In this document: in pieces, positions 657 through 48,990 of the stretch
How positions within the stretch are numbered: position 1 is the stretch's first letter
Layout of the letters: every line of letters begins with the position of its first letter
Origin: a virus
Virus record (IMG/VR): IMGVR_UViG_3300000216_000003
Coordinates: 1 to 64,000 of that record
Reading direction: 5' to 3' (one strand)
DNA length: 64,000 nt
Translations under genes and position numbers: made by a program
Notes under the pieces: generated by a model
Database searches by the model: none
Told to the model about the DNA's origin: nothing
Seen by the model: the letters and a program-made list of their open reading frames with translations, nothing else

Positions 657-1106
657 TTATGATTCCTTTAAAATTACTTTATTGATGGCATTTCGCAAAT
701 TAACACTATATAACTTTTCTTTTTCTTCTTCTAAATAATCATTAGATTTCTCTAATTCTGTAATACTTGATTCTAAATGTTTAATAATTTCATGGGATGT
801 TGGAATGCTATCTTTTATTTTATTATATATAAATTTTTCAAGTCGATTCATGACATATCCATCTAAATTACAAGCAGACGGTATATCAGCTTCACTATAC
901 ATATTAAGATGAAGACTGTTGCTCATTCTCCCAATCCTCAGCCCACCCTCATCTACTTTATAACCAACATTATTTACTTCTGATATTGTTATTCTTGTAT
1001 TTTCAATATACTTATTATTTACATCTTGCTCTCTGATATGTTTAAGAATAGAATCCGATAGAGTAGTGAGAGCTTTTTCAGTATTTTTAAAATGATTACT
1101 CTTCAT
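657..1106 (-). CDS. Coiled-coil hypothetical protein, paralogue family A, C-tagged
   Basis: Ends LRNAINKVILKES; paralogous to 1108-2433. Confidence 0.8.
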   Translation of the reverse strand: MKSNHFKNTEKALTTLSDSILKHIREQDVNNKYIENTRITISEVNNVGYKVDEGGLRIGRMSNSLHLNMYSEADIPSACNLDGYVMNRLEKFIYNKIKDSIPTSHEIIKHLESSITELEKSNDYLEEEKEKLYSVNLRNAINKVILKES

Positions 1107-1107
1107 A

Positions 1108-1548
1108 TTAAGAATCCTCTAGAATTACTTTATTAATCGCATTCCGCAAATTACCATCTAATAACTCATCTTTTAAATTTTCAGAATATTCATTATCCTT
1201 TTCTAACTGAGTAATGCTTTCTCTTAGATTCTGAATAATTTCTTGTTGAGTTGGTAAATGATTTTTCATCTTTTTCCAAATGAAGTCTTCAAGGTTATGT
1301 ATTGTTCGCGTACATAACTTTCTATTGGATACTAATAATTTATCAGATTTAAATTTAATAGTTAAAGTATCATTAAAACTATCAATACTTACTTTATTTA
1401 CATTATACCCAAGATTTGTTATTTCTTTTATACAATCTTGAGTTAATAATATATTCTCATTATTTTTATCTTGACTTTTAATATGATTAGAAAGTTCTTT
1501 TCTTAATTTATCAATAGAATTTTGCATATTTTTAAGAACTTGACTCAT
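1108..1548 (-). CDS. Coiled-coil hypothetical protein, family A, C-tagged
   Basis: Ends LRNAINKVILEDS. Confidence 0.8.
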   Translation of the reverse strand: MSQVLKNMQNSIDKLRKELSNHIKSQDKNNENILLTQDCIKEITNLGYNVNKVSIDSFNDTLTIKFKSDKLLVSNRKLCTRTIHNLEDFIWKKMKNHLPTQQEIIQNLRESITQLEKDNEYSENLKDELLDGNLRNAINKVILEDS

Positions 1549-1549
1549 A

Positions 1550-1987
1550 TTAAGAATCCTCTAGAATTGCTCTACTTATTGCAGATTGTAGATTAGTATT
1601 AAGTAATTCTTTTTCCTGTTCTATATCTTGCTCAACAACTTTCTCCATACTTTTAATCTTCCTCTTCATACTCTTTAATACTTCATCTTTATCTGGAACC
1701 ATTGTTTTAATTAACTCTTCCATCATACCACTCACCCAATAATGAGTTTCGTTATCACCTACATCGATTTCAGGTATTTGAATTCGAAGACGAATATCAT
1801 ACCAACAATTTTTAGTTGTTCGATCTTCCCACATATGATATTCAAACCCTTCATCTTTTAATTCTTTCATAAAAGATTTTAATAACTCTATACCTTTAAT
1901 ATGCCGCTCACAATCAGTTACCAAATAAGATAATTCTTTTTTTAATTTATCTAATGCCTGGCCTGTATTTTTGAGTTTTTGATTCAT
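1550..1987 (-). CDS. Coiled-coil hypothetical protein, family A, C-tagged
   Basis: Ends LQSAISRAILEDS. Confidence 0.8.
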   Translation of the reverse strand: MNQKLKNTGQALDKLKKELSYLVTDCERHIKGIELLKSFMKELKDEGFEYHMWEDRTTKNCWYDIRLRIQIPEIDVGDNETHYWVSGMMEELIKTMVPDKDEVLKSMKRKIKSMEKVVEQDIEQEKELLNTNLQSAISRAILEDS

Positions 1988-2433
1988 GATTCCTCTAGAA
2001 TATTCCTAGTGATAATACTCTGTAGACTTGACGCTAGAGTTGCTTTTTCTTCTTCCACCTTAGTTGCGATATTATCTTCTATCTCTTCTATTTTCGCATC
2101 TAATAATTTTTTCAACTCTTCTGGATCTGGAGATGCCAGTTTTATTAGTTCTTCGCATATATTTTTAAATGAATCCTCTTCCCTCTTCGTATCGAATCTA
2201 TGTCCCTCAATCTCAATAGGAATTATTAAAGCTATAGACTGCCCAGTAATTTTATTATCACCATCTGTATGATTAAAACGCATAATCTCCACACCAGCTT
2301 TCTCTACTCGTTTAGATACTTTTTTTAAAGGTTTAATAATTTTTAATAACCTTTCATATCCTTTAATATTATCAACTAGTTCTTCTCTTAATAATTTTAA
2401 GGAGTTCTCAATATTCTCAATTTTTCTACTCAT
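1984..2433 (-). CDS. Coiled-coil hypothetical protein, family A, C-tagged
   Basis: Ends LQSIITRNILEES. Confidence 0.8.
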   Translation of the reverse strand: MSRKIENIENSLKLLREELVDNIKGYERLLKIIKPLKKVSKRVEKAGVEIMRFNHTDGDNKITGQSIALIIPIEIEGHRFDTKREEDSFKNICEELIKLASPDPEELKKLLDAKIEEIEDNIATKVEEEKATLASSLQSIITRNILEES

Positions 2434-3137: not shown

Positions 3138-3169
3138 TTAGATTACTCTCCTGTATGATGTCTTTTACC

Positions 3170-3334: not shown

Positions 3335-3338
3335 AAGT

Positions 3339-3707
3339 TTATGTCGCTTCTAATACCCGTTTGATTGTTATTTTCTTTAATTCTCTATCTAGTTTTTTGA
3401 TTATTTTGATCCTATGTTTATATGAACCCTGCCAATCAGACCAATAGTTAGGTAATGTATTATATACTAAGTCTTTTAGACTAGCACCAGCCATACTTGA
3501 TCCTGCAAACATCTTAGTTTTACGATAATAAGTATGTGCATTAGTTACTCGTTCATCACCATAAACTGTAATAAATCTATTATAGATAGGTATCCATATT
3601 TTGTTTTCACTGCGGATACCATACTCATCTGGTGACATACTAACTATTTTTAATAATGAATTATATATACTATCTAAATTTTCTTCAATTTCTTTATAAT
3701 AGTTCAT
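3339..3707 (-). CDS. Hypothetical protein, C-tagged
   Basis: Ends TIKRVLEAT; last gene before the terminator. Confidence 0.75.
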   Translation of the reverse strand: MNYYKEIEENLDSIYNSLLKIVSMSPDEYGIRSENKIWIPIYNRFITVYGDERVTNAHTYYRKTKMFAGSSMAGASLKDLVYNTLPNYWSDWQGSYKHRIKIIKKLDRELKKITIKRVLEAT

Positions 3708-4093
3708 TAAGATTGTTCCAACATTAATCTATATAGTTGTTTTTCAATAGAACTTAATATTTTTAATTGTTTAGGTCGACTAAATCGTCCAATATAGTCT
3801 TTTGTTTTACTACTGAGTCTAGCAATATTATTCTCATCATTAATTGAGTAAATTCCACTAAATCTTTTAGGTGTCTCGATAGAATGGTCAAACATATGTT
3901 CAATATAATTATTACTACTATAAATTTGAAACATCTTATCACGTTTCACAATTATTTCAATCAGAGTACCGAATACAGTTAAACCATAACCACCTCCCAT
4001 TGCTCGATGATTGCTTACAGGTAGTGCATAAAGTATGTCACGAATATCCTGATATTTTTTATTGATTTTTCGTTTGATCTCTTTATTAGTCAT
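3707..4093 (-). CDS. Hypothetical protein, C-tagged
   Basis: Ends LYRLMLEQS; coupled stop/start. Confidence 0.75.
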   Translation of the reverse strand: MTNKEIKRKINKKYQDIRDILYALPVSNHRAMGGGYGLTVFGTLIEIIVKRDKMFQIYSSNNYIEHMFDHSIETPKRFSGIYSINDENNIARLSSKTKDYIGRFSRPKQLKILSSIEKQLYRLMLEQS

Positions 4094-4452
4094 GACATAC
4101 TAAGCCTATCTTTTAATATATCATTCTTAATTTTTCTCAAAATATATTTAGTCTGAACACGTTTCTTAGTCTGAACTCGAAACATATGAAGAGCTCCTTC
4201 AATAGTATTGGTCACATTTTTATATAGTGGAAGTATTTTGAATTTTGGAGGCATTGGTTTATATGGTTCAAATCTAATAGCGGTTATTTTACCAAATGCA
4301 ATCTGAGCTCCAACACTGAACTTATCAAACTCGACAATAGTCGCGAAGAATCCATCGACGTCGAATAAGTCAGTGTGAGCTTCCATATACTTTAGGATTA
4401 AATTATCCACATCAGCATACATAGATTGCAGTTCTTTTTCTCTCTTAGTCAT
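4090..4452 (-). CDS. Hypothetical protein, C-tagged
   Basis: Ends ILKDRLSMS. Confidence 0.75.
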   Translation of the reverse strand: MTKREKELQSMYADVDNLILKYMEAHTDLFDVDGFFATIVEFDKFSVGAQIAFGKITAIRFEPYKPMPPKFKILPLYKNVTNTIEGALHMFRVQTKKRVQTKYILRKIKNDILKDRLSMS

Positions 4453-4772
4453 TAGTACTCCTTTAAAATATGATATAATAGTTTATCTTTAAATTTCTTC
4501 ATATCGAATATTAATCTATATTCTTTTAATAATAGTTTTAGTTCTTTCTCATTATTGAATGGTCGATTAGCATAATATAATGGCTTATATCCACCTTCTC
4601 TTAATCTCCATTGATTCTCCATACGGTCAACAAACCAAGGCGAATCATAATTATGATAATTCCACATCTCCCCACTCTTAATAGATACTTGAAAATATCT
4701 AGTTGGATGGTGACATCTTTTATTAAGTAAATCTATTATCTTTATGCCCATTCTAATAACCGTCTCCGACAA
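4452..4772 (-). CDS. Hypothetical protein, family B, C-tagged
   Basis: Ends FDMKKFKDKLLYHILKEY; start position uncertain. Confidence 0.7.
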   Translation of the reverse strand: MSETVIRMGIKIIDLLNKRCHHPTRYFQVSIKSGEMWNYHNYDSPWFVDRMENQWRLREGGYKPLYYANRPFNNEKELKLLLKEYRLIFDMKKFKDKLLYHILKEY

Positions 4773-5002
4773 TCATTTTTAAATTTCTTAATATCAAAGT
4801 CAATATTATATGTTTTCATATATTCCATAAATCGTTCTTCATTTGCAAATGCCATATGTGTATAATTTTTATTAATATTTCTAAGGTACCACATCGATCC
4901 CCTATAAACATACCATTCGTTATTTAGTTTAATACCAGACCATTGAGGGTAATTCTCCAGAGCATCCGTCAACTTGTTTATTATTTTTATAAAGTCAGAC
5001 AT
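4742..5002 (-). CDS. Hypothetical protein, family B, C-tagged
   Basis: Ends FDIKKFKNDCRRRLLEWA. Confidence 0.75.
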   Translation of the reverse strand: MSDFIKIINKLTDALENYPQWSGIKLNNEWYVYRGSMWYLRNINKNYTHMAFANEERFMEYMKTYNIDFDIKKFKNDCRRRLLEWA

Positions 5003-5277
5003 TAGGATTTCTCCAGTATTTGCCGGGTTATTTGGTTTTTAATATTGCTTTTGATTTCAGAAAGAGACATGGTTATATCTTTCTTTTTTAATAATTCAGT
5101 AATTTGTCTGTCATTTGAAAACGAAGAACCACATCGAGCATAATCTCCAAGATGGTAATAATATACCGCAGAACCTGGTACTTTTGCTCTACATCTAAAA
5201 ACTATATCTTTATTAATAGTAATAAATGAATCCTCTAACATATCTACATATTCATCTAATACTTTAACTATATCCAT
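5002..5277 (-). CDS. Hypothetical protein, family B, C-tagged
   Basis: Ends ITRQILEKS. Confidence 0.75.
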   Translation of the reverse strand: MDIVKVLDEYVDMLEDSFITINKDIVFRCRAKVPGSAVYYYHLGDYARCGSSFSNDRQITELLKKKDITMSLSEIKSNIKNQITRQILEKS

Positions 5278-5543
5278 TATACCCCCTTTAATATTAATTT
5301 AAGACACTTCTCTTTAAGTATTTGAATATCTATATATATATTTAGCTTAATTATTATACTTTTAAATTCCTCTTCAGTTTGAAAATCAGTATCTAGTCCA
5401 TTCCATAATGTATGGGTACTTAAATTCCAATATTGATTATATATACTTTCATTAATATATACATTTTTACATATTTTAATTGATGAAAAAGACCCATTAT
5501 AAGTAGTAAAGTATTTCTTAAGTATTTCTTCTAAGTTCTCCAT
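5277..5543 (-). CDS. Hypothetical protein, family B, C-tagged
   Basis: Ends CLKLILKGV. Confidence 0.7.
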   Translation of the reverse strand: MENLEEILKKYFTTYNGSFSSIKICKNVYINESIYNQYWNLSTHTLWNGLDTDFQTEEEFKSIIIKLNIYIDIQILKEKCLKLILKGV

Positions 5544-8009: not shown

Positions 8010-8193
8010 CTGTATCTACAAGTTCAATATTATTAACACTTTCTTCAAGAGTAACTATAGGTATATCCCGCCACATTTTAAAATCTTTAAAATTTTCACG
8101 GAATGATACATATTGTTGAAATTTTATAACATCATTATCTTTATCTACGACCATTCTAAGTGTAAATTCTGGCGGACTATTGAATCTAGACAT
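7987..8193 (-). CDS. Hypothetical protein
   Basis: Coupled ORF containing WRDIPIV. Confidence 0.65.
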   Translation of the reverse strand: MSRFNSPPEFTLRMVVDKDNDVIKFQQYVSFRENFKDFKMWRDIPIVTLEESVNNIELVDTDGGDFVQ

Positions 8194-8393
8194 TAACTAG
8201 TCTCCAATATATATTTAGTAAGAGCCCTGTGTAATTCTTTTACATTATCATCAGATATCCAAATCTGAATAGTGTCTGCCCCATTTCTACCGGCCGCAAC
8301 ATGTAGACCATTAAAATGATCATTAAACAGATCTATATATTGATGAGGTGCAAAATCATTTTTAACATAAAAAATAGAGTCGGATGTTTTCAT
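8193..8393 (-). CDS. Small protein, family C, C-tagged
   Basis: Ends VKELHRALTKYILETS. Confidence 0.75.
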   Translation of the reverse strand: MKTSDSIFYVKNDFAPHQYIDLFNDHFNGLHVAAGRNGADTIQIWISDDNVKELHRALTKYILETS

Positions 8394-8395
8394 AA

Positions 8396-8596
8396 TTATG
8401 AATCATCTAATAATTGACGGGTAAGTACTGCGTGTAACTCTTTTATCTTACTAGCAGGAACTACCATATGTACTTTTCCATCCGTCATTCTATTATATGC
8501 TGGAATCAATAGTTCACCGGATCCAGCGGATATTTTAACATCTTGAGGATAATCAACAATATATTCGGCAATATGTTCATATGCTTTTGAAATCAT
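8396..8596 (-). CDS. Small protein, family C, C-tagged
   Basis: Ends IKELHAVLTRQLLDDS. Confidence 0.75.
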   Translation of the reverse strand: MISKAYEHIAEYIVDYPQDVKISAGSGELLIPAYNRMTDGKVHMVVPASKIKELHAVLTRQLLDDS

Positions 8597-8871
8597 GATG
8601 CCTCCAATAGAGTTCTACTTATACGACGATGTAAGTCTTTAAGCTCATCTTTTGATGAATGTTCCATCATAAAATTGCCAAATTTCCACATTAAAGTCTT
8701 TACATCATTCTTATTAATTACAATACCGCCTCGAGGAGCGCCTTCAGGCCAGAAATTATCCAGCAACTGTATTCTAATACCTGGTCCACCATTCCAATTA
8801 TCTATTTCATCTTCTCTAATATGAAGATATCTTTTGGGGTTTTCATACTGATTCTTAGCTTCCAAGTACAT
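8593..8871 (-). CDS. Small protein, family C, C-tagged
   Basis: Ends LKDLHRRISRTLLEAS. Confidence 0.75.
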   Translation of the reverse strand: MYLEAKNQYENPKRYLHIREDEIDNWNGGPGIRIQLLDNFWPEGAPRGGIVINKNDVKTLMWKFGNFMMEHSSKDELKDLHRRISRTLLEAS

Positions 8872-9139
8872 TAGCTGCTAACTCCTCCCTTTCATATGTA
8901 TAATCATGATTAATTGCATCTATTAAATCTTCTTTAATATCAGGATCTGTCTCATAATGAGGGACCATACAGAAAGCGGAGTCAGTCCACAATACCCGTC
9001 CGGCACGATATCTTCCCTTTTGATCTCTGAATGTGACTTCGATACATGGTAAATGATCATCGACATATCGATTAATAATATTAACATCTTTAATATCTGT
9101 GATATTTTCAAAATTCTTCGGGAATACTCTATCCGCCAC
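8855..9139 (-). CDS. Hypothetical protein
   Basis: Coupled ORF; ends LAANVLGS. Confidence 0.7.
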   Translation of the reverse strand: MADRVFPKNFENITDIKDVNIINRYVDDHLPCIEVTFRDQKGRYRAGRVLWTDSAFCMVPHYETDPDIKEDLIDAINHDYTYEREELAANVLGS

Positions 9140-9354
9140 TATGCCATCTCCAGTAATAATTTTTGAATAGCAGTAATCAGTTCTTTCGCTTTCTCTGGAC
9201 TAAGTACAGTATCATAAGAAGGTTTCCTTTCTGGATGTGTTCCGTCGAAAACATCTTCTATAGTTATTCTAATGTCTCCACGGTCAATCCGAATTACAAT
9301 ATCTTCATTATAACTATCTTTCATATTATATGTTGACACAATAAAAAACTCCAA
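9139..9354 (-). CDS. Small protein, family C, C-tagged
   Basis: Ends AKELITAIQKLLLEMA; directly downstream of the promoter at 9376. Confidence 0.7.
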   Translation of the reverse strand: MEFFIVSTYNMKDSYNEDIVIRIDRGDIRITIEDVFDGTHPERKPSYDTVLSPEKAKELITAIQKLLLEMA

Positions 9355-9375
9355 ATAAGGTTGATATTATTCTTT

Positions 9376-9403
9376 ATTATATCTATATATACTATATAAA
9401 AAC
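9376..9403 (-). promoter_or_regulatory. Phage promoter motif
   Basis: GTTTTTA-N9-TATAGATATAAT on minus. Confidence 0.75.
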
Positions 9404-9426
9404 ACAAATAAAACTGGGTAAAGACG

Positions 9427-9627
9427 TTAATCTTCACCCAGGTATTGTTGTAATTTTTCTTTTATTTCGATTGCTATATCACGCTCAATATATACAATTT
9501 CCATTCGATTAGCAGCATATATTAATACTAAATTCAATTTTCCATTGATAACATTTAAACTTATGGCTGGGCCATCTTTATCTGCTTCTTCTTTTACTAT
9601 TAATAAATGTTTATTATGAATTGTCAT
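9427..9627 (-). CDS. Small protein, family C-like
   Basis: Start MTIHNK at 9627 (ATGA coupling); ends KLQQYLGED. Confidence 0.7.
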   Translation of the reverse strand: MTIHNKHLLIVKEEADKDGPAISLNVINGKLNLVLIYAANRMEIVYIERDIAIEIKEKLQQYLGED

Positions 9628-9821
9628 GATGTTTCCAATAGCCATTTACCTAATGACTCATATAATTCTTTTATATCTTTTCTACTCATATGTGACGCAT
9701 TATCAGATGATACAAATCTGACATAATGCTGATTAGAATAGAATCTGATTATATGTCTATTGAATCTAGAACAATCATATAAACAGTCCTCATCTGCTTT
9801 TCTATTCCATGCGCCATTCAT
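9624..9821 (-). CDS. Small protein, family C, C-tagged
   Basis: Ends IKELYESLGKWLLETS. Confidence 0.75.
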   Translation of the reverse strand: MNGAWNRKADEDCLYDCSRFNRHIIRFYSNQHYVRFVSSDNASHMSRKDIKELYESLGKWLLETS

Positions 9822-10426
9822 ACCGAAATCAGTACCTCTTTCATAAGTGAATTTTTGGTACTTTGATATTTATCTGTTGCTAATAACCAAGCCGTCGTAA
9901 GTCGAAGTAATATACGGTTGCTATCAATATGTAGATGTTGAGGATAACTATTACGACTTTCAATTCCTAATTTATTCCCATACATAGTTACTTTAAATAA
10001 TATATTATTTAGAATACTTATATTTTTTACTTTTGGAGTCGTAGTTATATCTTTATTTAAAATATTTAATAGTAATTCCATTTCTTTATCACATGTATTT
10101 AAATATTTAATTACATCAATAGTTGAATATGTCTCGTGTAAAAAATCAACATCTTTAAAATTTATAATAGTTGTAATTAATTTACCTTCTCTGTTGCTTA
10201 ATGCTCTTAAAATAATATCCATAAATATTTGAAATGCTTTATCTTCAATGAATTTAGAATAGTAGTATTCAGATTCTAATACTGGAATGTTTTTAATTGT
10301 TAATCCATTATCAAACGTTAATTCTACACTAGCATTTATTTTAAATCTAATATTATCTTTATCGCAACTTTTATCATATATAGATCTAAATTTATGGAAT
10401 TTATCCCAATCAGTAATATCTCCCAT
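9818..10426 (-). CDS. Hypothetical protein, family D, C-tagged
   Basis: Ends KNSLMKEVLISV. Confidence 0.75.
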   Translation of the reverse strand: MGDITDWDKFHKFRSIYDKSCDKDNIRFKINASVELTFDNGLTIKNIPVLESEYYYSKFIEDKAFQIFMDIILRALSNREGKLITTIINFKDVDFLHETYSTIDVIKYLNTCDKEMELLLNILNKDITTTPKVKNISILNNILFKVTMYGNKLGIESRNSYPQHLHIDSNRILLRLTTAWLLATDKYQSTKNSLMKEVLISV

Positions 10427-11037
10427 TAAGCATTCTTTAATTTAGTATACATTAGTTTTCTATTAAATTCATCCATCTTACCACCTGCTTTCAAAATAGT
10501 AATAACACCTTTAAAATATTTAAAATATTCTTGTTTTTGTCTATCCCGATACATACCCATTTTTTCATTATTACTATAATATTTAAGATTCTGTATTCTT
10601 AACTTCATGAATGGAACATGAAACCCGATAATATTACCCATTAATTCAATTTCAAACAATTGACTTTTATATGAACAATTTCCATTAATATTTTCAAGGA
10701 AAAGCCAAAAGTCTTCGACTTCTGAAGTTGAAATAGATTCAAATATCTCTATTAATTTAGCCGGGTCTTTTACCTTCTTACTTAAAGTAGTGACACCTTT
10801 TAAGTGTTTACTTGTTGTTTTAGTAATATTAAATATATCAGTAATGAATTTAAATACTTTATAATCATTATCTGTCCATTTATTTAAGATATTTAGCGCT
10901 TCTTTAAATGTCTTATTTGAAGCTGCATTAATAACACATCCATTGATTGCAAGATCAATACCTTGCAATCGAATGGATTTATTAAAATCTGAAGATAATA
11001 ATGGTTGTAGTTCAACTAGTTCACAATCAACAGCCAT
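10426..11037 (-). CDS. Hypothetical protein, family D, C-tagged
   Basis: Ends FNRKLMYTKLKNA. Confidence 0.75.
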   Translation of the reverse strand: MAVDCELVELQPLLSSDFNKSIRLQGIDLAINGCVINAASNKTFKEALNILNKWTDNDYKVFKFITDIFNITKTTSKHLKGVTTLSKKVKDPAKLIEIFESISTSEVEDFWLFLENINGNCSYKSQLFEIELMGNIIGFHVPFMKLRIQNLKYYSNNEKMGMYRDRQKQEYFKYFKGVITILKAGGKMDEFNRKLMYTKLKNA

Positions 11038-11276
11038 TAAGCTTTTTCCAGTAATAGTTTACCCAACCACTCATATAATATTTTAACCTCTTTTCTTTCA
11101 AATGTGTTATATACCTTAACTTCAACAGTAGCGTCACCAACATCTAAATCTAAAGTATTACAAGCACTTAAAAATTCAGCACTAGATTTATCAAATGATA
11201 AGATATTACTACTACCCGAACTATTTCTTGTGTGAAATTCTATCTCACCAAATTCTTCTTCTTCGTATATAACCAT
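11037..11276 (-). CDS. Small protein, family C, C-tagged
   Basis: Ends VKILYEWLGKLLLEKA. Confidence 0.75.
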   Translation of the reverse strand: MVIYEEEEFGEIEFHTRNSSGSSNILSFDKSSAEFLSACNTLDLDVGDATVEVKVYNTFERKEVKILYEWLGKLLLEKA

Positions 11277-11506
11277 TAGGATGATCCTAGTAACATTTTA
11301 CTAATATAAGAATGTATAATTTTAAGGTTTTCTTTATTTAGAGTTATAGTTGCCGCTGCTGTCGTTTCTGATCCATAATCATTTATAATTTTAATTTGGG
11401 CACTTGCCCCATATTGAGATTCGATGGGATATATCGTAATATCTTGATATACCCCATCCATCTCTCTACTAGAAGTGTTAATTTGTAATTCTTCTAGATC
11501 ATCCAT
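11276..11506 (-). CDS. Small protein, family C, C-tagged
   Basis: Ends LKIIHSYISKMLLGSS. Confidence 0.75.
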   Translation of the reverse strand: MDDLEELQINTSSREMDGVYQDITIYPIESQYGASAQIKIINDYGSETTAAATITLNKENLKIIHSYISKMLLGSS

Positions 11507-15309: not shown

Positions 15310-15346
15310 ATTAATTTCCTTAAAAATAATAAGTAGATTATAACAT

Positions 15347-34937: not shown

Positions 34938-34947
34938 ATTAATACCT

Positions 34948-35429: not shown

Positions 35430-35656
35430 GAATGTTCCAATATAAATTTAGTAAGAGTATGTTTTGCTTTATCAGTAATGCAATCAAGTAGATAACTTTT
35501 AGCTAAATATGGGCTTAAATGCATCTCTCTTTTAACTCCGATTGCTTCAGTAACTGTTACAATTGGACATTTTTTACATGTAATTGGTTCCCATATAAAA
35601 ACATCAACTATTCCTATAACGGCTAATATTTCTTCTTCCGTTAATATATCACTCAT
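35426..35656 (-). CDS. Small protein, family F, C-tagged
   Basis: Ends CITDKAKHTLTKFILEHS. Confidence 0.75.
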   Translation of the reverse strand: MSDILTEEEILAVIGIVDVFIWEPITCKKCPIVTVTEAIGVKREMHLSPYLAKSYLLDCITDKAKHTLTKFILEHS

Positions 35657-35850
35657 GACTCCTCTAATAATATTCTAAGTAGTTGTTTATCTACTCCAGG
35701 AACATGCGGTTCTTGCATTAACTCTTTAATTGTTTCAGGTGTATTTTTATATCTCATTACTTGATTATACTTATTATACTTATTATACCTTCGAACGAGT
35801 ATATCTAAAGGCCAATTAGATCCATCTTTAGTATTTATAACTTTGAGAAT
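35653..35850 (-). CDS. Small C-tagged protein with an ATT start (or a mutated ATG)
   Basis: Manual: (I)LKVINTKDGSNWPLD...DKQLLRILLEES*; ATT sits at the usual TAATG coupling position after AAGGA. Confidence 0.55.
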   Translation of the reverse strand: MLKVINTKDGSNWPLDILVRRYNKYNKYNQVMRYKNTPETIKELMQEPHVPGVDKQLLRILLEES

Positions 35851-36284
35851 TATACAGTCCTTAATAAGTATCTCCCAATATTCATTTTTAATTGAGGTCT
35901 CTTTACCAGTTCAAAATATTCTTTTAACATACTTGGTTTTGGACTTTTTGCTATTAATAAATCAACACTATCTAATGATATCTTGTTATAATCACTAATA
36001 TGCACTTTTCTGGCGGTTAAATCAAAATACAGGATAGTATCGATAATATTAAAAGTTATTAATACTTGATCTTCGAAATCAAATATACAAACACCTGTAA
36101 ATTGTTCAATATCTGTATGAGGACAATTTTTTAAATGACAATCTCTTATTCTTTTCTGTTCTGATATGCGCTTAATATACCGATTGGATTGTGGTTCAAG
36201 GGAAGACCATTTATAACCAATACCAGTACTTATTGGTTTTTCATATTCTTTTTCACTAAGTACATCATATCCAAAATGACACAT
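35850..36284 (-). CDS. Hypothetical protein, C-tagged
   Basis: Ends IGRYLLRTV. Confidence 0.7.
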   Translation of the reverse strand: MCHFGYDVLSEKEYEKPISTGIGYKWSSLEPQSNRYIKRISEQKRIRDCHLKNCPHTDIEQFTGVCIFDFEDQVLITFNIIDTILYFDLTARKVHISDYNKISLDSVDLLIAKSPKPSMLKEYFELVKRPQLKMNIGRYLLRTV

Positions 36285-36562
36285 TATGATCTCTCTAGTA
36301 TAAGTTTAGTAAGTGCATTCCTAGCTTGTCGTGTGCTGCATCTAGGTAATAGTTTAAGCGCATCTTCTTTTGTTAAATGAATTGCCGCAGGAAACCTATT
36401 CCGACGAAATTGCCATTCATTATAATACGGCTCCGGTGTAATTCTGTATGAGTGTAGAAGTTGTTCATATTCAACTAACATAATCGTAGTAGTTAATAGA
36501 TGAGTTATGATATCTTTATATAATTGATTACCTCCATAATCAAATCCATAATCAAACCCCAT
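36284..36562 (-). CDS. Small protein, family F, C-tagged
   Basis: Ends CSTRQARNALTKLILERS; shares RI.xEPYYN with 34948. Confidence 0.75.
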   Translation of the reverse strand: MGFDYGFDYGGNQLYKDIITHLLTTTIMLVEYEQLLHSYRITPEPYYNEWQFRRNRFPAAIHLTKEDALKLLPRCSTRQARNALTKLILERS

Positions 36563-36759
36563 TATATAGACTCTAATATAAATTTAGTAAGTTCATTTTT
36601 TGCTTGAGGTGTAATGCATCTGGATAGCATATCTTGCGCCTTTATTTTATCCATCATAATATAATAAACTTTCCTATCCAGAGTTATTACTTTAAAATCT
36701 GGACAGGAAAAATGTTCGGTTGGAAGTATACGAATCTCAATTACATCAGTTACTGGCAT
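36562..36759 (-). CDS. Small protein, family F, C-tagged
   Basis: Ends CITPQAKNELTKFILESI. Confidence 0.75.
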   Translation of the reverse strand: MPVTDVIEIRILPTEHFSCPDFKVITLDRKVYYIMMDKIKAQDMLSRCITPQAKNELTKFILESI

Positions 36760-38096: not shown

Positions 38097-39089
38097 TTAT
38101 GACAAAGATAATTGGAACCTATTAAGTTTATTTCTAAAAGCATTATATTCACCGACCATATGAACATATGCAACCATACGAGTAAGCATTCCAGTATAGT
38201 CATAATCATAACTACCTAGTTCAACATTTCGTATACATGGTACACTTACCCATATTTTTTTAAATGCTTGAGGATTATAAATATTAAATACTAACCCTTT
38301 TATATTTATAACCATATTTGTTTTATACTTACTTGCTGTAGCGGCATCGTTAATTCTAGTCATTTGCTTTAGAATAGATTCAACATCATCTGTTATTTTA
38401 TCTTGTGAATTAAGCAAATTTGTATATTCTGCATTTTTAAATATGGATGCTATTTTATTAATACTAGAAGATGGGATATCTATTGTTGAATGACTATTAC
38501 TAGTATATGATCCATCTGCAAGATAGTTTAAAAATTTCAAATGTTCTGATGTAGTACTATCTCCAATCTTTTGAATATTTTGCAGTTTCTTAATAATTGT
38601 CTTTAATTTATCTGTTAATTTTTCTTCTAATGGGTAAAAACCCAACATACCTATAGTACATTCAAAATTTAAATAAGTATAATTATCCCCTACTTGGCGT
38701 TTACTATAAATTGATAATTCTTTAGGTCTTAAATTAACCCGAAATTGATGAGCAGTGCCTTCGAAAACCTTGTCTATTAATTTTTGAAAATTGATAGTTT
38801 TAATTGCCTGTTTATTTGTAAACCGACAAGCAGAATGCCCTTCTACTTCCCGTATAGTTATACTACTAAAACGATTACTATCATCAATAATAAATATAAC
38901 ACCGTTTTTTACATTAGCAATACCTTGCCTACTATTAATTTGATCAAATTCAATCATTGATGAGAATGCCCACCCTGCATTATCAACAAGATAAATCCCT
39001 TTTTGGTTTTCTAATAAAGAGGAGTATTTATTACCACCCCTAAATATTATATCATTATTAGATGCTTCCAAAATATTCGTTATTTTCAT
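38097..39089 (-). CDS. Hypothetical protein, family D, C-tagged
   Basis: Ends FRNKLNRFQLSLS; starts MKITNILEAS. Confidence 0.75.
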   Translation of the reverse strand: MKITNILEASNNDIIFRGGNKYSSLLENQKGIYLVDNAGWAFSSMIEFDQINSRQGIANVKNGVIFIIDDSNRFSSITIREVEGHSACRFTNKQAIKTINFQKLIDKVFEGTAHQFRVNLRPKELSIYSKRQVGDNYTYLNFECTIGMLGFYPLEEKLTDKLKTIIKKLQNIQKIGDSTTSEHLKFLNYLADGSYTSNSHSTIDIPSSSINKIASIFKNAEYTNLLNSQDKITDDVESILKQMTRINDAATASKYKTNMVINIKGLVFNIYNPQAFKKIWVSVPCIRNVELGSYDYDYTGMLTRMVAYVHMVGEYNAFRNKLNRFQLSLS

Positions 39090-39487
39090 GTTAGTAACAG
39101 TTTAATCCTTTGAAATTCGTGAATAACAGTTTTGACTGCGCTATAATGTCTTAGTATCTGATACATTTCAACTGGAAATTTTTTCTCATTTACTTCAAAT
39201 ATATAAGAATCTGTCTCAGTATTAACTGATATAGATCTTTTAGTTCCCCCATTTTTATTCCCTACCAACCAGTATAGTTTTATACTACCAGTTTCAAAGA
39301 ATTTTTTATATATATGTCTATCCATAAATTGAAAGTTCGGTTCTTTCTCATCTTTAATAATATAATCAAGAAATTTTTCTCCACAATTATCCAATTCTAA
39401 TAGAGAGGCATGTATTTCTTTTATATTATCAAAATCTTGAACCGTATTTGTAATGGTATTCATATATTTAGCGTCAAGTTTTATCAA
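39086..39487 (-). CDS. Hypothetical protein, C-tagged
   Basis: Ends FQRIKLLLT. Confidence 0.7.
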   Translation of the reverse strand: MIKLDAKYMNTITNTVQDFDNIKEIHASLLELDNCGEKFLDYIIKDEKEPNFQFMDRHIYKKFFETGSIKLYWLVGNKNGGTKRSISVNTETDSYIFEVNEKKFPVEMYQILRHYSAVKTVIHEFQRIKLLLT

Positions 39488-45182: not shown

Positions 45183-45521
45183 TTATGACCATTTTAAAAT
45201 TAGTTTTGTTATTGTTTTTTGATCCAAAGATGATTTACCATCTTTAAGCCTCTGTATCCATTCAATTTTAGATATTTCTTTATCAATAATATACCATCTA
45301 TCTGGATTATCATTATTAAATATTATAGCTGGTCCATCTTCTCTATGTAATAACCCATTATTAAACCAATATTTATTTCCTGTACTTGTATTTACAAAAG
45401 CATACCCATCTTCTCTATGTAGTTCTCCGTATGTATTTGTCCATATTAAATGGTCACCATCTTCATCAGTTTCACCTTTAAGATTAGGTGGATATATGTC
45501 AATTGTATAATGTTTACTCAT
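45183..45521 (-). CDS. HREDGPA-repeat protein, C-tagged
   Basis: Ends LDQKTITKLILKWS. Confidence 0.8.
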   Translation of the reverse strand: MSKHYTIDIYPPNLKGETDEDGDHLIWTNTYGELHREDGYAFVNTSTGNKYWFNNGLLHREDGPAIIFNNDNPDRWYIIDKEISKIEWIQRLKDGKSSLDQKTITKLILKWS

Positions 45522-45523
45522 TA

Positions 45524-45859
45524 TTAACTATTCTCCAGTATGATTCTGTTGATTGTCTTTTGATCCAGAGAGGATTTACCATCTCTTAAGTATTGAATCC
45601 ATTCATCTTTCGTTATATATTCACCATCAATATACCATTCATTAATATTTCCACTTTTCCAAATGCAAGCAGGACCATCTTCTCTATGTAACACGCCTCT
45701 ACAATACCAATATTCGGCACCAGTTTTATAAATAATTGCTGGTCCATTTTCTCTATGAAATAATCCATCAGAATCAGTCCATACACGATCACCATATTTA
45801 CATTCATCCCCATTTAAATTGGGAATAAATAATTCTTCATCGTATATGTCATTTGGCAT
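45524..45859 (-). CDS. HREDGPA-repeat protein, C-tagged
   Basis: Ends LDQKTINRIILENS. Confidence 0.8.
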   Translation of the reverse strand: MPNDIYDEELFIPNLNGDECKYGDRVWTDSDGLFHRENGPAIIYKTGAEYWYCRGVLHREDGPACIWKSGNINEWYIDGEYITKDEWIQYLRDGKSSLDQKTINRIILENS

Positions 45860-46179
45860 TAACTATGCTCCAGTATGAGTTTTAATTCTGTATTTCGACC
45901 TAAACTAGAGGCAGCTTCTTTAAGCCATTGAAGCCACTCATCTTTTGAAATATCTATTCCATAGACATACCATCTAAGATCATATGATTCATCAACAGCT
46001 GGACCATCTTCTCGATGTAACCACCCATGATAGAACCAATTAACATGCCCATCTGGATATATAATAGCTGGACCATCTTCACGATGCCATCTACCTTCAG
46101 AATCAGTCCATATCATATCTCCATCTTGGTCTAATTCACCTTTAATATTGGGTTTAGTGCGTACAGTTGTATTATTCAT
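45859..46179 (-). CDS. HREDGPA-repeat protein, C-tagged
   Basis: Ends ELKLILEHS. Confidence 0.8.
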   Translation of the reverse strand: MNNTTVRTKPNIKGELDQDGDMIWTDSEGRWHREDGPAIIYPDGHVNWFYHGWLHREDGPAVDESYDLRWYVYGIDISKDEWLQWLKEAASSLGRNTELKLILEHS

Positions 46180-46484
46180 ATATTAAGACATTTCTTAATA
46201 GATTTAATAGCAGCTTCCATCTTTAGACGGGCAGAAGAATTAGCACTATGAACTTTTAATTTGGGGCATTTAAAACTTTTATTTAAGTGTACTTGTTCTT
46301 CAATGTATAATAAAACATCATAACCAGTACCAATACCTTCATCGTCTCCTAAGTCATGATCTAAACTAATTACAGATATCCTTTCTGGATGTTTTAGTAA
46401 TGTTATTACTTCTTTAGGGGTTTTTAATAGTATCCAAGTATTATCATATGGAGTTCTTTCATCATCGAGATATATTTTCATCAT
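46176..46484 (-). CDS. Cyclic-phosphate-processing receiver-like domain protein
   Basis: KIYLDDERTP..ISLDHDLG..TGYDVL..VHSAN. Confidence 0.8.
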   Translation of the reverse strand: MMKIYLDDERTPYDNTWILLKTPKEVITLLKHPERISVISLDHDLGDDEGIGTGYDVLLYIEEQVHLNKSFKCPKLKVHSANSSARLKMEAAIKSIKKCLNI

Positions 46485-46744
46485 GAATTCTCCAATATTA
46501 GACGAGTAATTTTATCAATTGAAATACTCGGATTACCAGATTTAAGCCATTGTATCCATTGTTTCTTAGTCATAATATTACCGTGATTGTAATATATTTC
46601 GAATTTATTATTAGTAATCATAGCCGGGCCATCTTCTCGATGTAGTTCTCCTTTATCATCACACCAAATTAAACCACCATCTACAGTAGCGACACCTTGT
46701 ACATTACGACGACTATGTTTTATACTATCTTCATTAAATGTCAT
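46481..46744 (-). CDS. HREDGPA-repeat protein, C-tagged
   Basis: Ends ITRLILENS. Confidence 0.8.
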   Translation of the reverse strand: MTFNEDSIKHSRRNVQGVATVDGGLIWCDDKGELHREDGPAMITNNKFEIYYNHGNIMTKKQWIQWLKSGNPSISIDKITRLILENS

Positions 46745-47091
46745 GATTCCTCCAATATTAATCCAATTAATTCATTTCGCTCTTTTCTTGTTATATTTTT
46801 AATATTATCTAAAATATACCTAGCATCTTCTCCCCTCAATTCTGAAGTTTTTATATTTATAACAACTCCATTATCCCAAATATTTAATAATCCATGCATA
46901 ATATCTAATATTTTTCTAAAATCTAAATCATAATCATCAAACTCATTTGTAAAAATAGTTATATCCATATTACTAGAATACTTATTCTCATCTAAACATA
47001 CTCTAAATAATTCAGTTTCTAGTGTAATTTTGATCATTTTAGTAACATATGTAATAACTTTTTCTTCTGCCGCTTCTCGTCTCGATATCAC
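46741..47091 (-). CDS. Hypothetical protein, family G, C-tagged
   Basis: Ends ITRKERNELIGLILEES. Confidence 0.75.
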   Translation of the reverse strand: MISRREAAEEKVITYVTKMIKITLETELFRVCLDENKYSSNMDITIFTNEFDDYDLDFRKILDIMHGLLNIWDNGVVINIKTSELRGEDARYILDNIKNITRKERNELIGLILEES

Positions 47092-47450
47092 GATTGCTCC
47101 AATAGATGTCTTCTGAGTGAATTCTCTTCTTCTGAAGAAAGATTTTTACTTCTATTTAACATATCTCTAGTTTGACAATTATTCAATATATCTGCTCTAA
47201 CTGATATATTTATTATATCAGCACCGAAAAATACATCAGGGTCTAGAATATCCCTCCTAATTATATTATACCAATATTCTGATATATTAATATAGGATTC
47301 AAAATTCAAATCTTTAATCGGTAGATACCGGATAGAAATAGCCGTAATATTATAATCTGTTGTTGTAGTATATTTTACTATAAACAGATTAGATCCGATA
47401 GTCTTCTGAACTAGTTTTTTAACTTCTTTTATTAATTGATCAGTTGTCAC
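47088..47450 (-). CDS. Hypothetical protein, family G, C-tagged
   Basis: Ends LRRHLLEQS. Confidence 0.75.
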   Translation of the reverse strand: MTTDQLIKEVKKLVQKTIGSNLFIVKYTTTTDYNITAISIRYLPIKDLNFESYINISEYWYNIIRRDILDPDVFFGADIINISVRADILNNCQTRDMLNRSKNLSSEEENSLRRHLLEQS

Positions 47451-47815
47451 GATTGTTCCAATAGATGTCTATTTAACATATTAGTTTCTTTATTGGAAAG
47501 ATTTGGTATTATTCGGAATATATCCATTATTTGTTTTTTCTCTAATATATTAGTATTAATAATTAAATGCTTAATTTTATTATATGTTTTACTATCTCTA
47601 AACATATCTTCTATTTTATGTTTCAAATATTCATCAGTTGGAATAGTTCCAAGTAGAATATTACCTCTCATAATAGTAATAACTTCAGATTGTAGATACC
47701 ATATAGTTAAATACATAGTATTATTAATTCTAGAAGTATCTAATATGAAAAGTCGGTTGCCTAGTATATTTCGACATATAGTTCTTGTATTTCTAATTAT
47801 CTCTTTTTCAGTCAT
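47447..47815 (-). CDS. Hypothetical protein, family G, C-tagged
   Basis: Ends LNRHLLEQS. Confidence 0.75.
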   Translation of the reverse strand: MTEKEIIRNTRTICRNILGNRLFILDTSRINNTMYLTIWYLQSEVITIMRGNILLGTIPTDEYLKHKIEDMFRDSKTYNKIKHLIINTNILEKKQIMDIFRIIPNLSNKETNMLNRHLLEQS

Positions 47816-48372
47816 GATTGCTCCAATATCACTCTATTTAATCTAATCGTTTCTTTAACTGTAATAGAAGGGATAGTATCTAAAAGATGTAAAACTGCTG
47901 CTTTATTTAATTCTTCAAACACTATCTTTATTCTAATCCCTCTCATATCTCCAGTTTGAACAATTGCACCTCTCATAATTGGAATCTTCCATTTTACAGA
48001 GTTTTGCATCATTCTTCGTTGAATAAACATACGATTATTAGAAGTATTAGCTTCATGATCTACAAATATTCGAATATAACAATCAAATGGTTTAATACTG
48101 TTCCATTGTATTGTATGGTTATAATCGATTGCAAATAATCTATTTGGCAGTATCATTTTAGCTATCATAGTTACGTCATTTTTTATCTTATTTAATCTAC
48201 TTAATCTAGATCTATATACTAATTCACCAGTCTCTCTAGGAGATATAAAAGGGGGTGTTGATATACTACGAGGCATAGCCGGTATTGCGAATACGGGTAT
48301 TCCTGGTTCTATGATTGGATTTTCTTCATAAGACTTTATCCACATATCATGAAACGATTTTAAACTAAACAT
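47812..48372 (-). CDS. Hypothetical protein, family G, C-tagged
   Basis: Ends LNRVILEQS. Confidence 0.75.
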   Translation of the reverse strand: MFSLKSFHDMWIKSYEENPIIEPGIPVFAIPAMPRSISTPPFISPRETGELVYRSRLSRLNKIKNDVTMIAKMILPNRLFAIDYNHTIQWNSIKPFDCYIRIFVDHEANTSNNRMFIQRRMMQNSVKWKIPIMRGAIVQTGDMRGIRIKIVFEELNKAAVLHLLDTIPSITVKETIRLNRVILEQS

Positions 48373-48373
48373 T

Positions 48374-48721
48374 CTAAGAATCCTCCAATATTATACGAGT
48401 TAATATATTCTTTTCATAACTAGTAATATCATAAAGAGTATCAAGAAGAGATTGGGCTTCTTCCCTCCCCAATTTATTTATGGTTATATCTTCTACTCTT
48501 GCTCTTTTATCTGTTATTCCAGTATTTATTAATTGTTGTAGATTGTATAATAAAACAACTGATATTGAATCTTTATTTATATGAGATATTTTAATTTTTA
48601 CTTCATTATATTTTATACTTTTCTTTATCTTAAATAATCTAGTATTTGTCATTACTTCTATTATATAATACATACTATTCTTTATTGTATCTAAGTGAAC
48701 CCTTTTTTGAGAAGATATCAT
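48374..48721 (-). CDS. Hypothetical protein, family G, C-tagged
   Basis: Ends LTRIILEDS. Confidence 0.75.
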   Translation of the reverse strand: MISSQKRVHLDTIKNSMYYIIEVMTNTRLFKIKKSIKYNEVKIKISHINKDSISVVLLYNLQQLINTGITDKRARVEDITINKLGREEAQSLLDTLYDITSYEKNILTRIILEDS

Positions 48722-48990
48722 ATATTTTCCAGTAATGCTTTAGTAATTATATTTAACGGCAACTTTGAATGTTTTTTAATCCAATTTCTCCAATCTTCTT
48801 TACTAAGACTCCTCCCATGTATGTAAAATAGATCATCCTTATTAATATTTCCTCTTATAATAGCAGGGCCTTCTTCTCTATGTAATTTCTTATCTTTTCT
48901 GTAATAACAATTACCAAAAGGATCAATATATTGTATATCTAGTGTTATCCTTGCTATCTCAGTTATTACTGTAATATCATCCCGATCCAT
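48718..48990 (-). CDS. HREEGPA protein, C-tagged
   Basis: Ends ITKALLENI; promoter copy at 49025-49036. Confidence 0.75.
   Translation of the reverse strand: MDRDDITVITEIARITLDIQYIDPFGNCYYRKDKKLHREEGPAIIRGNINKDDLFYIHGRSLSKEDWRNWIKKHSKLPLNIITKALLENI

Follow-up and report, generated by a model that had tools for sequence, protein, structure and literature searches.

Do the dozens of small, dissimilar proteins of this phage that end in nearly the same residues carry a peptide maintained by selection, and what would such a peptide do? The question was raised by a sequence-only reading of the window, the first 64 kb of a 106,480-bp contig (30% GC) from an uncultured giant phage, in which about 50 small proteins between positions 657 and 48990 were said to share a register-locked C-terminal tag. 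The contig represents ~41% of the phage genome (~285 kb), and all contig counts and absences reported here are limited to that share. It also encodes phiKZ-type RNA polymerase subunits. To define the gene set, ORFs were called greedily in six frames, non-overlapping and at least 45 aa long, yielding 207 ORFs on the whole contig.

Analysis of the C-termini revealed that 62 of the 207 ORFs end in [KR]-x-x-L-x-x-x-stop, compared with 2.4 expected over the whole contig. For an intermediate form, h-x-[KR]-x-x-L-[EKDQS]-x-x, the count of matching ends is 45 ORFs (0.29 expected), and the strict motif proposed earlier ends 21 ORFs and occurs at none of 31,291 internal positions. Leucine occupies position -4 in 81 of the 207 ORFs, against 18 expected. 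The register lock proved genuine: 62 ORFs have the Leu of [KR]xxL at -4, whereas each of the other positions among the last 30 has it in 0-16 ORFs, the peaks at -8 and -9 forming part of the same tail helix. About 44-47 of the 62 ORFs lie inside 657-48990, 44 being the count with K/R at -7 and Leu at -4. Together with four near misses (4452, 10426, 15375 and 46741), one ORF consisting of little beyond the tail (35653-35757) and one frameshifted ORF (15083-15310), they account for the original figure of about 50, and every example tail quoted at the time was found in the translations. The carriers are small, non-enzymatic proteins, ~50 in the window and ~65 on the contig (~30% of its ORFs), and the tail also occurs outside 657-48990, in a plus-strand arm at 72-103 kb. 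The full 285-kb genome probably contains well over 100.

Among alternative-frame ORFs, the motif was present in 4 of 149, and two of these four are real genes displaced from the gene set. A control of 80 loci from other phages, many of them at 23-35% GC, gave 0-3 motif ends per locus, and five relatives showed the tail motif at background level only; the tail is therefore no generic effect of AT-rich phages. The tail is missing from the nearest relatives, whose large topoisomerase subunit is 38-40% identical, so the clade as a whole does not conserve the system. This lineage specificity is explained equally well by a lineage-specific family expansion and by an address system. A literature search found no publication describing such a tail.

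Within the window, the carriers are arranged in arrays and operons, and all carrier loci given below lie on the minus strand. Four tandem paralogues (657-1106, 1108-1548, 1550-1987 and 1984-2433; 145-149 aa), all tailed and with helical, coiled-coil-like bodies, form one BLAST cluster; their tail profile matches those of other groups with this tail, but their body profile does not. An array of seven small genes (3339..5543; at 3339, 3707, 4090, 4452, 4742, 5002 and 5277) has six tailed members and one near miss (4452-4772), and its operon-terminal carrier (3339-3707), which writes L-E as TTA GAA, is followed by a hairpin and a T-run. Two carriers, 6569-7273 (234 aa) and 7671-8009 (112 aa), have an untagged gene between them, and the tail profile found the segment 7674-7766 (E=1.9e-6). 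The interval 8193..11506 contains a small alpha/beta family with an 18-residue tail helix (A5; at 8193, 8396, 8593, 9139, 9624, 11037 and 11276), a further carrier (9818-10426) and a near miss (10426-11037). A member of the H-R-E-D-G-P-A repeat family at 15083..15310 has a full tail that is out of frame with its own ATG; the frames could be joined at a run of five A, and the break may reflect a pseudogene, a ribosomal slip or an error of assembly.

Three tagged genes (26615..27601; at 26615, 26934 and 27287) lie in the replication operon, flanked by the helicase gene and a gene for a 478-aa protein. Membership is doubtful for a 95-aa ORF at 29398..29685, whose tail is weak (R at -7, L-E at -4/-3) and gave no match in the tail profile search. 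Downstream of the small topoisomerase subunit lie ten tagged genes (34253..36759; at 34253, 34489, 34689, 34948, 35232, 35426, 35850, 36284 and 36562), in an array that has, in addition, the 34-aa ORF at 35653-35757; an alignment of this array (A1), searched against 5.8 billion proteins, matched only this phage's own proteins. Between the primase and topoisomerase genes, two carriers of 330 and 133 aa (38097..39487) have degenerate tails, with S or L replacing E at -3, and neither belongs to a Pfam or PHROG family. Finally, a single twelve-gene operon (45183..48990), with a promoter motif at 49025 and with 47447-47815 recovered as one of its genes, has eleven tailed members; 46176-46484 is untailed, and 46741-47091 is without K/R at -7. 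H-R-E-D-G-P-A repeats make up the bodies of five members, and those of the rest are different (alignment A4).

The tail follows the consensus K-N-x-[IL]-[TSN]-[KR]-x-[IL]-L-E-x-S-stop over a ~15-residue helix, with no proline or glycine from -17 to -4 in the carriers and with Asn at -11 in 25 of 62. A turn and another hydrophobic patch usually come before it. The nine-residue tag first described is thus real but was drawn too short, the module spanning ~15-25 residues. In the AF2 model of A5, the tail corresponds to helix 48-65, the best-scored part of a protein with low overall pLDDT; in that of A4, beta hairpins are followed by helix 84-92 and by tail helix 100-110. These helices and the proline- and glycine-free span agree with a terminal helix of 15-20 residues; its amphipathicity is modest. 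The hydrophobic moment is 0.36 in tails versus 0.29 in untagged ends, as expected of a helix used on two faces. Over all 207 ORFs, with none preselected, the most informative C-terminal positions were -4, -3 and -7, which on a helical wheel face away from the hydrophobic stripe. The net charge of the tail is +1 to +1.7, with a hydrophobic core and K/R on its flanks.

A helix-turn-helix motif, which has hydrophobic residues at positions 4, 8, 10 and 15, glycine at 9 and a three-residue turn, was considered and rejected. When the motif is aligned so that its position 15 falls on -9, only 19-35% of carriers have a hydrophobic residue at positions 4, 8 and 10, K or S stands at position 9 where glycine is required, and Pfam detected no such family among the 17 carriers scanned. 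Family C of the contig has a tail with K-x-K-L.

The compact gene order raises the question of whether the tail is simply what results when the initiation region of the next gene (A/T-rich enhancer, GGAG and ATGA/TAATG overlap) is translated, a by-product of coupling. The stop lies within 5 nt of the next start in 49 of 62 carriers, and the L-E codons double as a Shine-Dalgarno site, as the sequence-only reading had recognized: they are biased towards GGAG, with TTG and CTG making up 50% of Leu codons at -4 (11% genome-wide) and GAG 64% of Glu codons at -3 (18% genome-wide), and TCA is favoured at -1 ahead of TGA. However, a GGAG/GAGG/AGGA core in the last six codons is as frequent in untagged coupled genes (32/74) as in tagged ones (21/49; 43% each), the former encoding it via many different residue pairs, and in over half of the coupled genes that are tagged, the tail contains no strong core. 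No Shine-Dalgarno site reaches positions -15 to -5, which vary synonymously. Synonymous codons at -9, -7 and -5 match genome-wide usage, in line with the independence claimed for these positions, and the tail as a whole uses both AGR and CGN for Arg, both TCN and AGY for Ser, and six codons for Leu at -4. The enrichment also survives removal of coupled genes, again as anticipated: among the 67 ORFs that have no start within 20 nt and hence count as uncoupled, 10 carry the tail, compared with ~1% expected, and TTA GAA writes L-E in uncoupled tagged genes. Relatives that are AT-rich and tightly packed show no such signal. As a sole cause, coupling is largely refuted and now scarcely credible, and the tail is maintained by selection as a peptide. 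Since L-4 and E-3 overlap the Shine-Dalgarno site, their conservation may be due in part to the RNA.

Comparison of the carrier bodies revealed little in common beyond this peptide. BLAST of the 62 bodies gave 41 singletons and seven small clusters, and profile-profile comparison of nine family groups (hhalign) gave body probabilities of at most 0.7%, whereas the tails of seven of the nine groups matched mutually at 14-87% (E 4e-6 to 2e-3). The similarity along the body that marks simple paralogy was thus not found; a contrasting case of plain paralogy is relative G002, in which 14 genes with a common end have bodies forming a single BLAST cluster. Low-confidence AF2 models (pLDDT 58-63) depict beta-hairpin repeats in one body and a small alpha/beta fold in another, with the tail a helix in both. 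The claim of unrelated bodies in at least seven families holds at this level: judged by sequence comparison, the tail is modular across at least seven body groups mutually without detectable similarity, although such bodies can still be very old paralogues. Under that alternative, all carriers would derive from one small gene via tandem duplication, their bodies having diverged beyond recognition, and the C-terminal helix would be a conserved structural or self-association element of the fold with no common external reader. The tandem arrays are consistent with such descent, as are within-group similarity that often extends 25-32 residues back from the end, the paralogous family with a conserved C-terminal end in the relative, and the restriction of the tail to this lineage. 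It is harder to reconcile with tails that match at profile level when bodies do not, with predicted architectures that differ (beta-hairpin repeats, coiled coils, small alpha/beta), and with most constrained positions that are distinct from the main hydrophobic stripe. Furthermore, a 53-bp direct repeat (48/53 identical), containing tail codons and the next start, flanks an unrelated acidic gene, and past the TAG stop of that gene a tail remains in frame; this junction suggests how the tail could spread. We regard common descent of all carriers as a serious but doubtful possibility.

Tagged genes are co-transcribed with replication genes, with which they share operons and a promoter motif. The ORF ends bear out the reported absence of the tail from QueE, QueD, PolB, RNase H, ThyX, helicase, GyrA/B, primase and the deaminase, and the partial match in QueC, where 11499-12260 has only I-L-E-D-G; polymerase, helicase, primase, topoisomerase, RNA polymerase subunits and ligase are all without it. 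An import signal for a phage compartment, as once suggested, is unlikely, because the replication and transcription enzymes that most need import have no tail.

Our preferred explanation, held tentatively and at somewhat less than an even chance, is that the tail is a short C-terminal helical module acting as a shared docking helix for one partner, for class-wide handling. The stripe formed by -13, -9, -6, -5 and -2 would pack on the protein's own body, and the opposite, most constrained face, L-4, E-3 and K/R-7 (with T-8, N-11 and S-1), would face one shared partner from phage or host; this exposed-face argument uses an ideal helical wheel and structure models with pLDDT 58-63. The partner would treat the whole early/middle protein class alike, and the variable bodies would give different activities or targets. 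In tight operons, the service of the L-E codons as the next gene's ribosome-binding site would help to fix the distance to the stop. The module would spread via tandem duplication and via gene-junction recombination that puts a tail segment behind an unrelated gene. A stronger form of this docking explanation, a true address label by which one receptor reads the conserved helix face and handles ~65 unrelated early proteins as a class, appears rather unlikely to us. Its receptor could be a head-core component, a lineage-specific J-domain protein with host DnaK, or a host hub. If it is correct, the class might be capsid-loaded as an exchangeable injected effector library, and new genes would join it by junction recombination placing them before a resident tail.

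Other functions of the tail were weighed against docking. As a degron or timer, or in a chaperone hand-off, it would direct early proteins to a host AAA+ protease, or to DnaK via a phage J-domain protein, and the class would be cleared or folded together. The J-domain gene noted earlier is real: a 240-aa J-domain-like protein with an HPD motif is encoded at 21238..21960 on the minus strand and is a candidate reader only, with a Pfam DnaJ match (E=0.003) below the curated cut-off and a PDB match to the Ydj1 J-domain at E=0.023. No J-domain homologue was found in the five relatives, which also lack the tail, a single co-occurrence. The fixed distance to a free C-terminal end and the basic, K/R-flanked hydrophobic core would likewise suit such a role. 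On the other hand, the tail ends in the polar E-x-S, whereas ClpXP and Tsp tails are non-polar at the end; DnaK disfavours an acidic residue next to Leu; conserved polar positions across 12 residues would be needless for a degron; and no ClpP, MoxR or vWA gene is present on the contig (~41% of the genome), from which PF07726 (MoxR) and PF13519 (vWA) are both absent; the five nearest relatives likewise have no MoxR or vWA gene. We judge this role quite improbable. An amphipathic helix that targets the membrane, as those at the C-termini of MinD or FtsA do, would also be terminal, basic and partly hydrophobic, but the hydrophobic moment barely exceeds that of untagged ends, Glu is conserved at -3, and neither the exact register nor conserved polar positions are needed for lipid binding, making this very improbable.

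Capsid loading or ejection, in which the tail would dock small proteins on the scaffold, inner body or portal so that a variable effector set is packaged and injected, is possible but unlikely. T4 internal proteins are a diverse set sharing only a short capsid-targeting sequence (PMC3012670), and in giant phages that have a virion RNA polymerase, large families of paralogues are packaged, the family size depending on the lineage (from 2 members, in phiKZ, up to 20, in SPN3US; PMC5694885). The phiKZ-type RNA polymerase subunits of the contig point the same way, and one coiled-coil carrier weakly matches a PHROG internal head protein (E=6e-4), probably through a composition effect. Against this reading, known targeting peptides are N-terminal and cleaved off, the operons and promoter motif of the tagged genes are those of replication genes, no structural genes lie close to them, and the head genes are not within the 41% of the genome that was available.

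Among known systems, dockerins are C-terminal calcium-binding modules of ~70 residues that bind cohesin partners and occur on extracellular cellulosomal enzymes. They resemble the tail as a C-terminal module on dozens of unrelated proteins of one genome, with one cognate receptor in their case, but share neither sequence nor fold with it. The SspB XB, ssrA and MuA tails, which serve AAA+ proteases as tethering peptides or degrons, span 3-10 residues, are extended and have mostly non-polar or basic ends, are likewise short motifs anchored at the C-terminus and are read by one hub; the phage tail differs in being helical and ending in E-x-S.

Encapsulation peptides of bacterial microcompartments are terminal amphipathic helices of 15-20 residues at the N- or C-terminus of unrelated cargo, which bind one shell partner and can also cluster cargo (PMC4594438). 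They conserve a hydrophobic pattern with little sequence conservation and follow a long, poorly conserved linker (PMC4594438), whereas here conservation extends to particular polar residues and fixes the distance to the stop exactly, and the linker is short or missing: the A5 helix comes directly after a strand, and the A4 helix after a loop of ~7 residues. No microcompartment shell family was found among the 40 larger ORFs.

The capsid-targeting sequence of T4 (IPI-III, Alt) is N-terminal, 10-20 residues long, present on a handful of proteins and removed by the prohead protease (PMC3012670, PMC5694885). The present tail, by contrast, lies at the extreme C-terminus, is helical, and occurs on ~30% of contig ORFs in operons shared with replication genes; its I-L-E fits the L/I-x-E cleavage site, yet cleavage there would take off only two residues. 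In T4, the carrier set changes fast, one phage structure is the reader, and the sequence can be transferred to foreign proteins (PMC3012670, PMC5694885). In both systems, one short terminal peptide is common to diverse small phage proteins with unrelated bodies.

The pattern [KR]-x-x-L-x-x-x-stop ends 62 of the 207 non-overlapping ORFs of at least 45 aa on the contig, against 2.4 expected from its internal frequency, and a stricter nine-residue version forms the end of 21 ORFs with zero internal occurrences. The leucine falls at position -4 (counted back from the stop, -1 being the last residue) and at almost no other position. ORFs read in alternative frames carry the pattern in about 1-3% of cases, and 80 loci of other phages around topoisomerase homologues, many of them equally AT-rich and tightly packed, contain 0 to 3 tails each. 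The C-terminal composition profile peaks at -9, -7, -5, -4 and -3 on this contig; in two near-complete relatives, 285 and 257 kb long and each with about 30% GC, it is almost flat. With the leucine fixed in place and both alternative frames and other phages at background level, the register-locked C-terminal tag proposed in the sequence-only reading is real, and the observation of a shared tail is solid. Its nine-residue pattern also stands; its length does not, as the module is longer, with helix features reaching back to -17. The carriers of the tail are small (median 92 aa, only three exceeding 200 aa), accounting for 58 of the 149 ORFs of up to 150 aa, and none is found among the recognisable enzymes, as that reading had stated.

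Position by position, the 62 carriers describe a helix of about 15 residues. Proline and glycine are entirely absent from -17 to -4; position -15 is lysine or serine and hydrophobic in just 3%, -13 is isoleucine or leucine, and asparagine occupies -11 in 25 carriers. Position -9 is hydrophobic in 97%, -8 is threonine, leucine or asparagine, -5 is isoleucine, leucine or lysine, glutamate stands at -3 in 36 of 62, and serine at -1 in 29 of 62. Immediately upstream, proline and glycine peak at -18 and a pair of hydrophobic positions follows at -21/-22, marking a turn before the tail and the end of another structural element. AlphaFold2 predicted the tail as helical in both families modelled, with low overall pLDDT (58-63). 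In one family the predicted helix comes behind beta hairpins and covers residues 100-110; in the other it comes behind strands, covers residues 48-65 and scores better than any other stretch of the protein.

On an ideal helical wheel, -13, -9, -6, -5 and -2 form a single hydrophobic stripe, and -4, -7, -3, -8, -11 and -1 lie on the opposite side. The three most informative positions across all 207 ORFs, without preselection, are -4, -3 and -7. The hydrophobic moment of the tail is only a little higher than for untagged ends, which is what one would expect of a helix that uses both its faces. A helix-turn-helix reading was dropped because the hydrophobic pattern does not fit, and comparison of the tail profile with PDB sequences returned chance-level matches only, the best (E=0.4) being a helix of NtrC-type ATPases.

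The tail overlaps extensively with translation signals. In 49 of the 62 carriers the stop lies within 5 nt of the next start. The -4 leucine is encoded by TTG or CTG in 50% of carriers versus 11% genome-wide, and the -3 glutamate by GAG in 64% versus 18%, so that the two codons spell GGAG and, as had been claimed, double as the Shine-Dalgarno sequence of the next gene. The -1 serine is TCA in 52% versus 24%, consistent with an ATGA overlap. A GGAG, GAGG or AGGA core is equally frequent within the final six codons of tagged and untagged coupled genes (43% each), and in the untagged coupled genes it is written by many different residue pairs. Among ORFs with no start within 20 nt, the tail is kept in 10 of 67, a count that includes a few gene-set artefacts, with the leucine-glutamate pair spelled mostly TTA GAA. 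Clearly terminal tagged genes lie at 3339, 6569, 34253, 35850, 45183, 82439 and 87406. The enrichment thus outlasts the removal of coupled genes, and operon-terminal genes named in support of that claim (3339, 34253 and 45183) are among those that retain the tail. Positions -9, -7 and -5 show ordinary synonymous codon mixtures, and arginine, serine and leucine within the tail are each spelled by unrelated codon families. The constraint acts on the peptide. Two of its codons are put to additional use as a ribosome-binding site, which probably helps to fix the three-residue spacing to the stop. An account of the tail as a mere ribosome-binding site is accordingly true in part and not in the main.

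When the last 16 residues were cut off, the 62 carrier bodies resolved into 41 BLAST singletons and seven clusters of two to five. They include H-R-E-D-G-P-A beta-hairpin repeats, long coiled-coil-like helices, small alpha/beta proteins and all-helical proteins of 65 aa. Profile-profile comparison of nine family groups gave body probabilities of no more than 0.7% for all pairs, while the tails of seven groups matched one another at 14-87% probability, in agreement with the claim that the bodies are unrelated. Tails of one carrier family at 84-87.6 kb (family C) matched those of a group at 102-103.5 kb at 91% and no others, defining two tail classes that both have lysine or arginine at -7 and leucine at -4. 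Pfam and PHROGs searches of 10 carriers and Pfam searches of 7 further ones yielded nothing above cut-offs, and the ESM Atlas gave no usable match for two carriers.

Plain paralogy is therefore not detectable among the carriers at the level of sequence. What an ordinary paralogous family looks like is illustrated, in contrast, by the IMG/VR relative IMGVR_UViG_3300028584_000450, where a tandem array of 14 genes (158.9-171.1 kb; 141-320 aa) shares the end K-F-P-E-x-x-E-Y-W-R-L-L-Y-G and all 14 bodies fall into one BLAST cluster. That the carriers nonetheless descend from one very old family, with the helix as a structural or self-association element, is the main rival reading, though one that seems to us rather unlikely; if so, the tail would still document a striking gene-family expansion, though no new kind of system.

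By profile and protein searches, the tail is specific to this lineage. Its profile matches the contig at 38 places; across the five nearest IMG/VR relatives, three of them 92-100% complete, the counts are 0, 0, 1, 0 and 0. A HMMER search of 1.84 billion representative proteins returned two matches at E<=0.001, a strain variant that differs by one residue from a 65-aa protein of this phage and a 1268-aa protein with four internal stretches, and thus nothing credible besides the strain variant of one carrier. A search with carrier family A1 against 5.8 billion proteins recovered only the phage's own. No close relative emerged from megablast and tblastn searches of GenBank phages (best RNA polymerase beta' matches about 25% identity) or from IMG/VR scans with single proteins; an IMG/VR scan with a topoisomerase alignment found relatives at no more than 40% identity, all without the tail. 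Topoisomerase proteins from closer relatives are nevertheless on record, at 89% identity on a 4.4-kb contig and at 45-51% on contigs of up to 287 kb. The one metagenome scan yielded a 3.4-kb contig at 54% identity; its genes in syntenic position show no detectable homology to the pair of carriers that lies between the primase and topoisomerase genes. We found no paper describing such a tail.

The contig itself (106,480 bp, 30% GC), of which the window forms the first 64 kb, was estimated by CheckV to be 41% complete, and proteins identical to its own are also present on a separate 284,614-bp contig. It encodes several components of a phiKZ-type multisubunit RNA polymerase, a T4-type topoisomerase II with both of its subunits, clamp loader, helicase, primase, NAD-dependent ligase, ThyX, QueC, QueD and a radical-SAM protein. 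No structural genes were recognised on it, and its gene content marks it as the portion with the replication and early-to-middle genes of an uncultured giant phage, whose closest cultured relatives are only about 25% identical in RNA polymerase beta'. The ribonucleotide reductase large subunit is represented by two ORFs at contig 69108-72220 (L001:9108-12220), covering profile positions 205-488 and 508-780 and separated by a 232-aa ORF; the gene could be split, or it could have received an insertion of the intron or intein type. GIY-YIG/HNH-type homing-endonuclease genes at contig 76815-77894 and 95984-97138 adjoin RNA polymerase subunit genes. The DNA polymerase may be split over two genes, a 309-aa ORF at 17697-18626 (-) with weak family B matches (E about 1e-4) and the 896-aa ORF at 21948-24638 (-) initially read as PolB, which matched no PHROG family; a split DNA polymerase has been reported in SPN3US-type phages (PMC5694885). 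Directly downstream of the larger gene lies, at 21238-21960 (-), the gene for a J-domain-like protein in which an HPD motif is present.

The motif TATAGATAT(A/T)AT has 28 exact copies on the contig, seven of them beyond the window and 21 within it (3170, 3233, 9376, 15347, 15814, 32067, 34213, 40434, 44045, 44187, 44844, 44914, 49025, 53429, 53471, 54132, 55956, 56546, 57170, 61035 and 61243). The copies inspected are intergenic and oriented toward the downstream gene, and the motif is probably the phage's own promoter; the operons it heads hold both tagged and replication genes. A second shared ending, roughly P-[TS]-x-x-V-x-x-Y-x-K-L-Y-W-S, occurs on about seven small genes flanking a strand switch (54174-55644 (-) and 57221-58027 (+)), with leucine or methionine at -4 in the leftward genes and leucine at -5 in the two rightward genes.

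Beyond the window, a 53-bp direct repeat (48/53 identical) at contig 84651-84703 and 85034-85086 (L002:4651-4703 and 5034-5086) spans the final 17 codons of a family C gene and the overlapping start of the gene that follows. The two copies flank an unrelated gene for an acidic 115-aa protein, which uses the duplicated start and has a complete in-frame tail behind its TAG stop; loss of that stop would join the tail to a new body. The arrangement is a direct trace of junction recombination. Two further traces, both in the window, are a 34-aa ORF at 35653-35757 (-), which comprises little besides the tail module and may be a remnant or free copy of it, and a member of the repeat family at 15083-15310 (-), whose ATG and complete tail lie in different frames. 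A run of five A could join these frames, and the locus may be explained by pseudogene formation, misassembly or ribosomal slippage. The junction repeat suggests how new phage genes can pick up, all at once, a functional C-terminus and the ribosome-binding site coupled to it, which bears on the birth and retention of orphan genes.

A peptide-selected helix, with its constrained residues off the hydrophobic stripe, fixed at the end of varied bodies and absent from enzymes, leads us tentatively to a shared docking module as the best reading, one we hold at somewhat less than an even chance; one shared partner would then read the helix on many different bodies. Where such proteins would go is a separate matter. 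Import into a phage compartment, one of the destinations first proposed, is unlikely, given that no tail is present on the enzymes of replication and transcription. Among possible readers of the tail, no phage-nucleus shell protein was recognised on the contig: a 622-aa candidate is instead a Ski2-like helicase, and ORFs of 538, 478, 430 and 440 aa had no matches. Capsid loading is possible by analogy, given the large paralogue families, variable between lineages, that are packaged by giant phages carrying a virion RNA polymerase (PMC5694885); against it, the tagged genes share operons and the TATAGATAT(A/T)AT motif with replication genes. A role as a degron or in hand-off to DnaK is likewise possible: the J-domain-like protein, as with the tail, has no counterpart in the five nearest relatives, but many genes are lineage-specific, and this link is one co-occurrence among them. 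Searches for MoxR, vWA and ClpP as further candidate readers found none on the contig.

Giant-phage genomes consist mostly of small orphan genes that offer no handle for study. If a third of the genes carry a peptide read by a single partner, that partner would be the key to a whole unknown class, and the peptide, if the docking reading is true, a ready tool for sending foreign proteins where the class goes. Dockerins are a known system of the same docking logic. A shared terminal docking or targeting peptide also underlies the capsid-targeting sequence of T4 (PMC3012670) and the encapsulation peptides of microcompartments (PMC4594438). By analogy, we tentatively place the tail with these systems.
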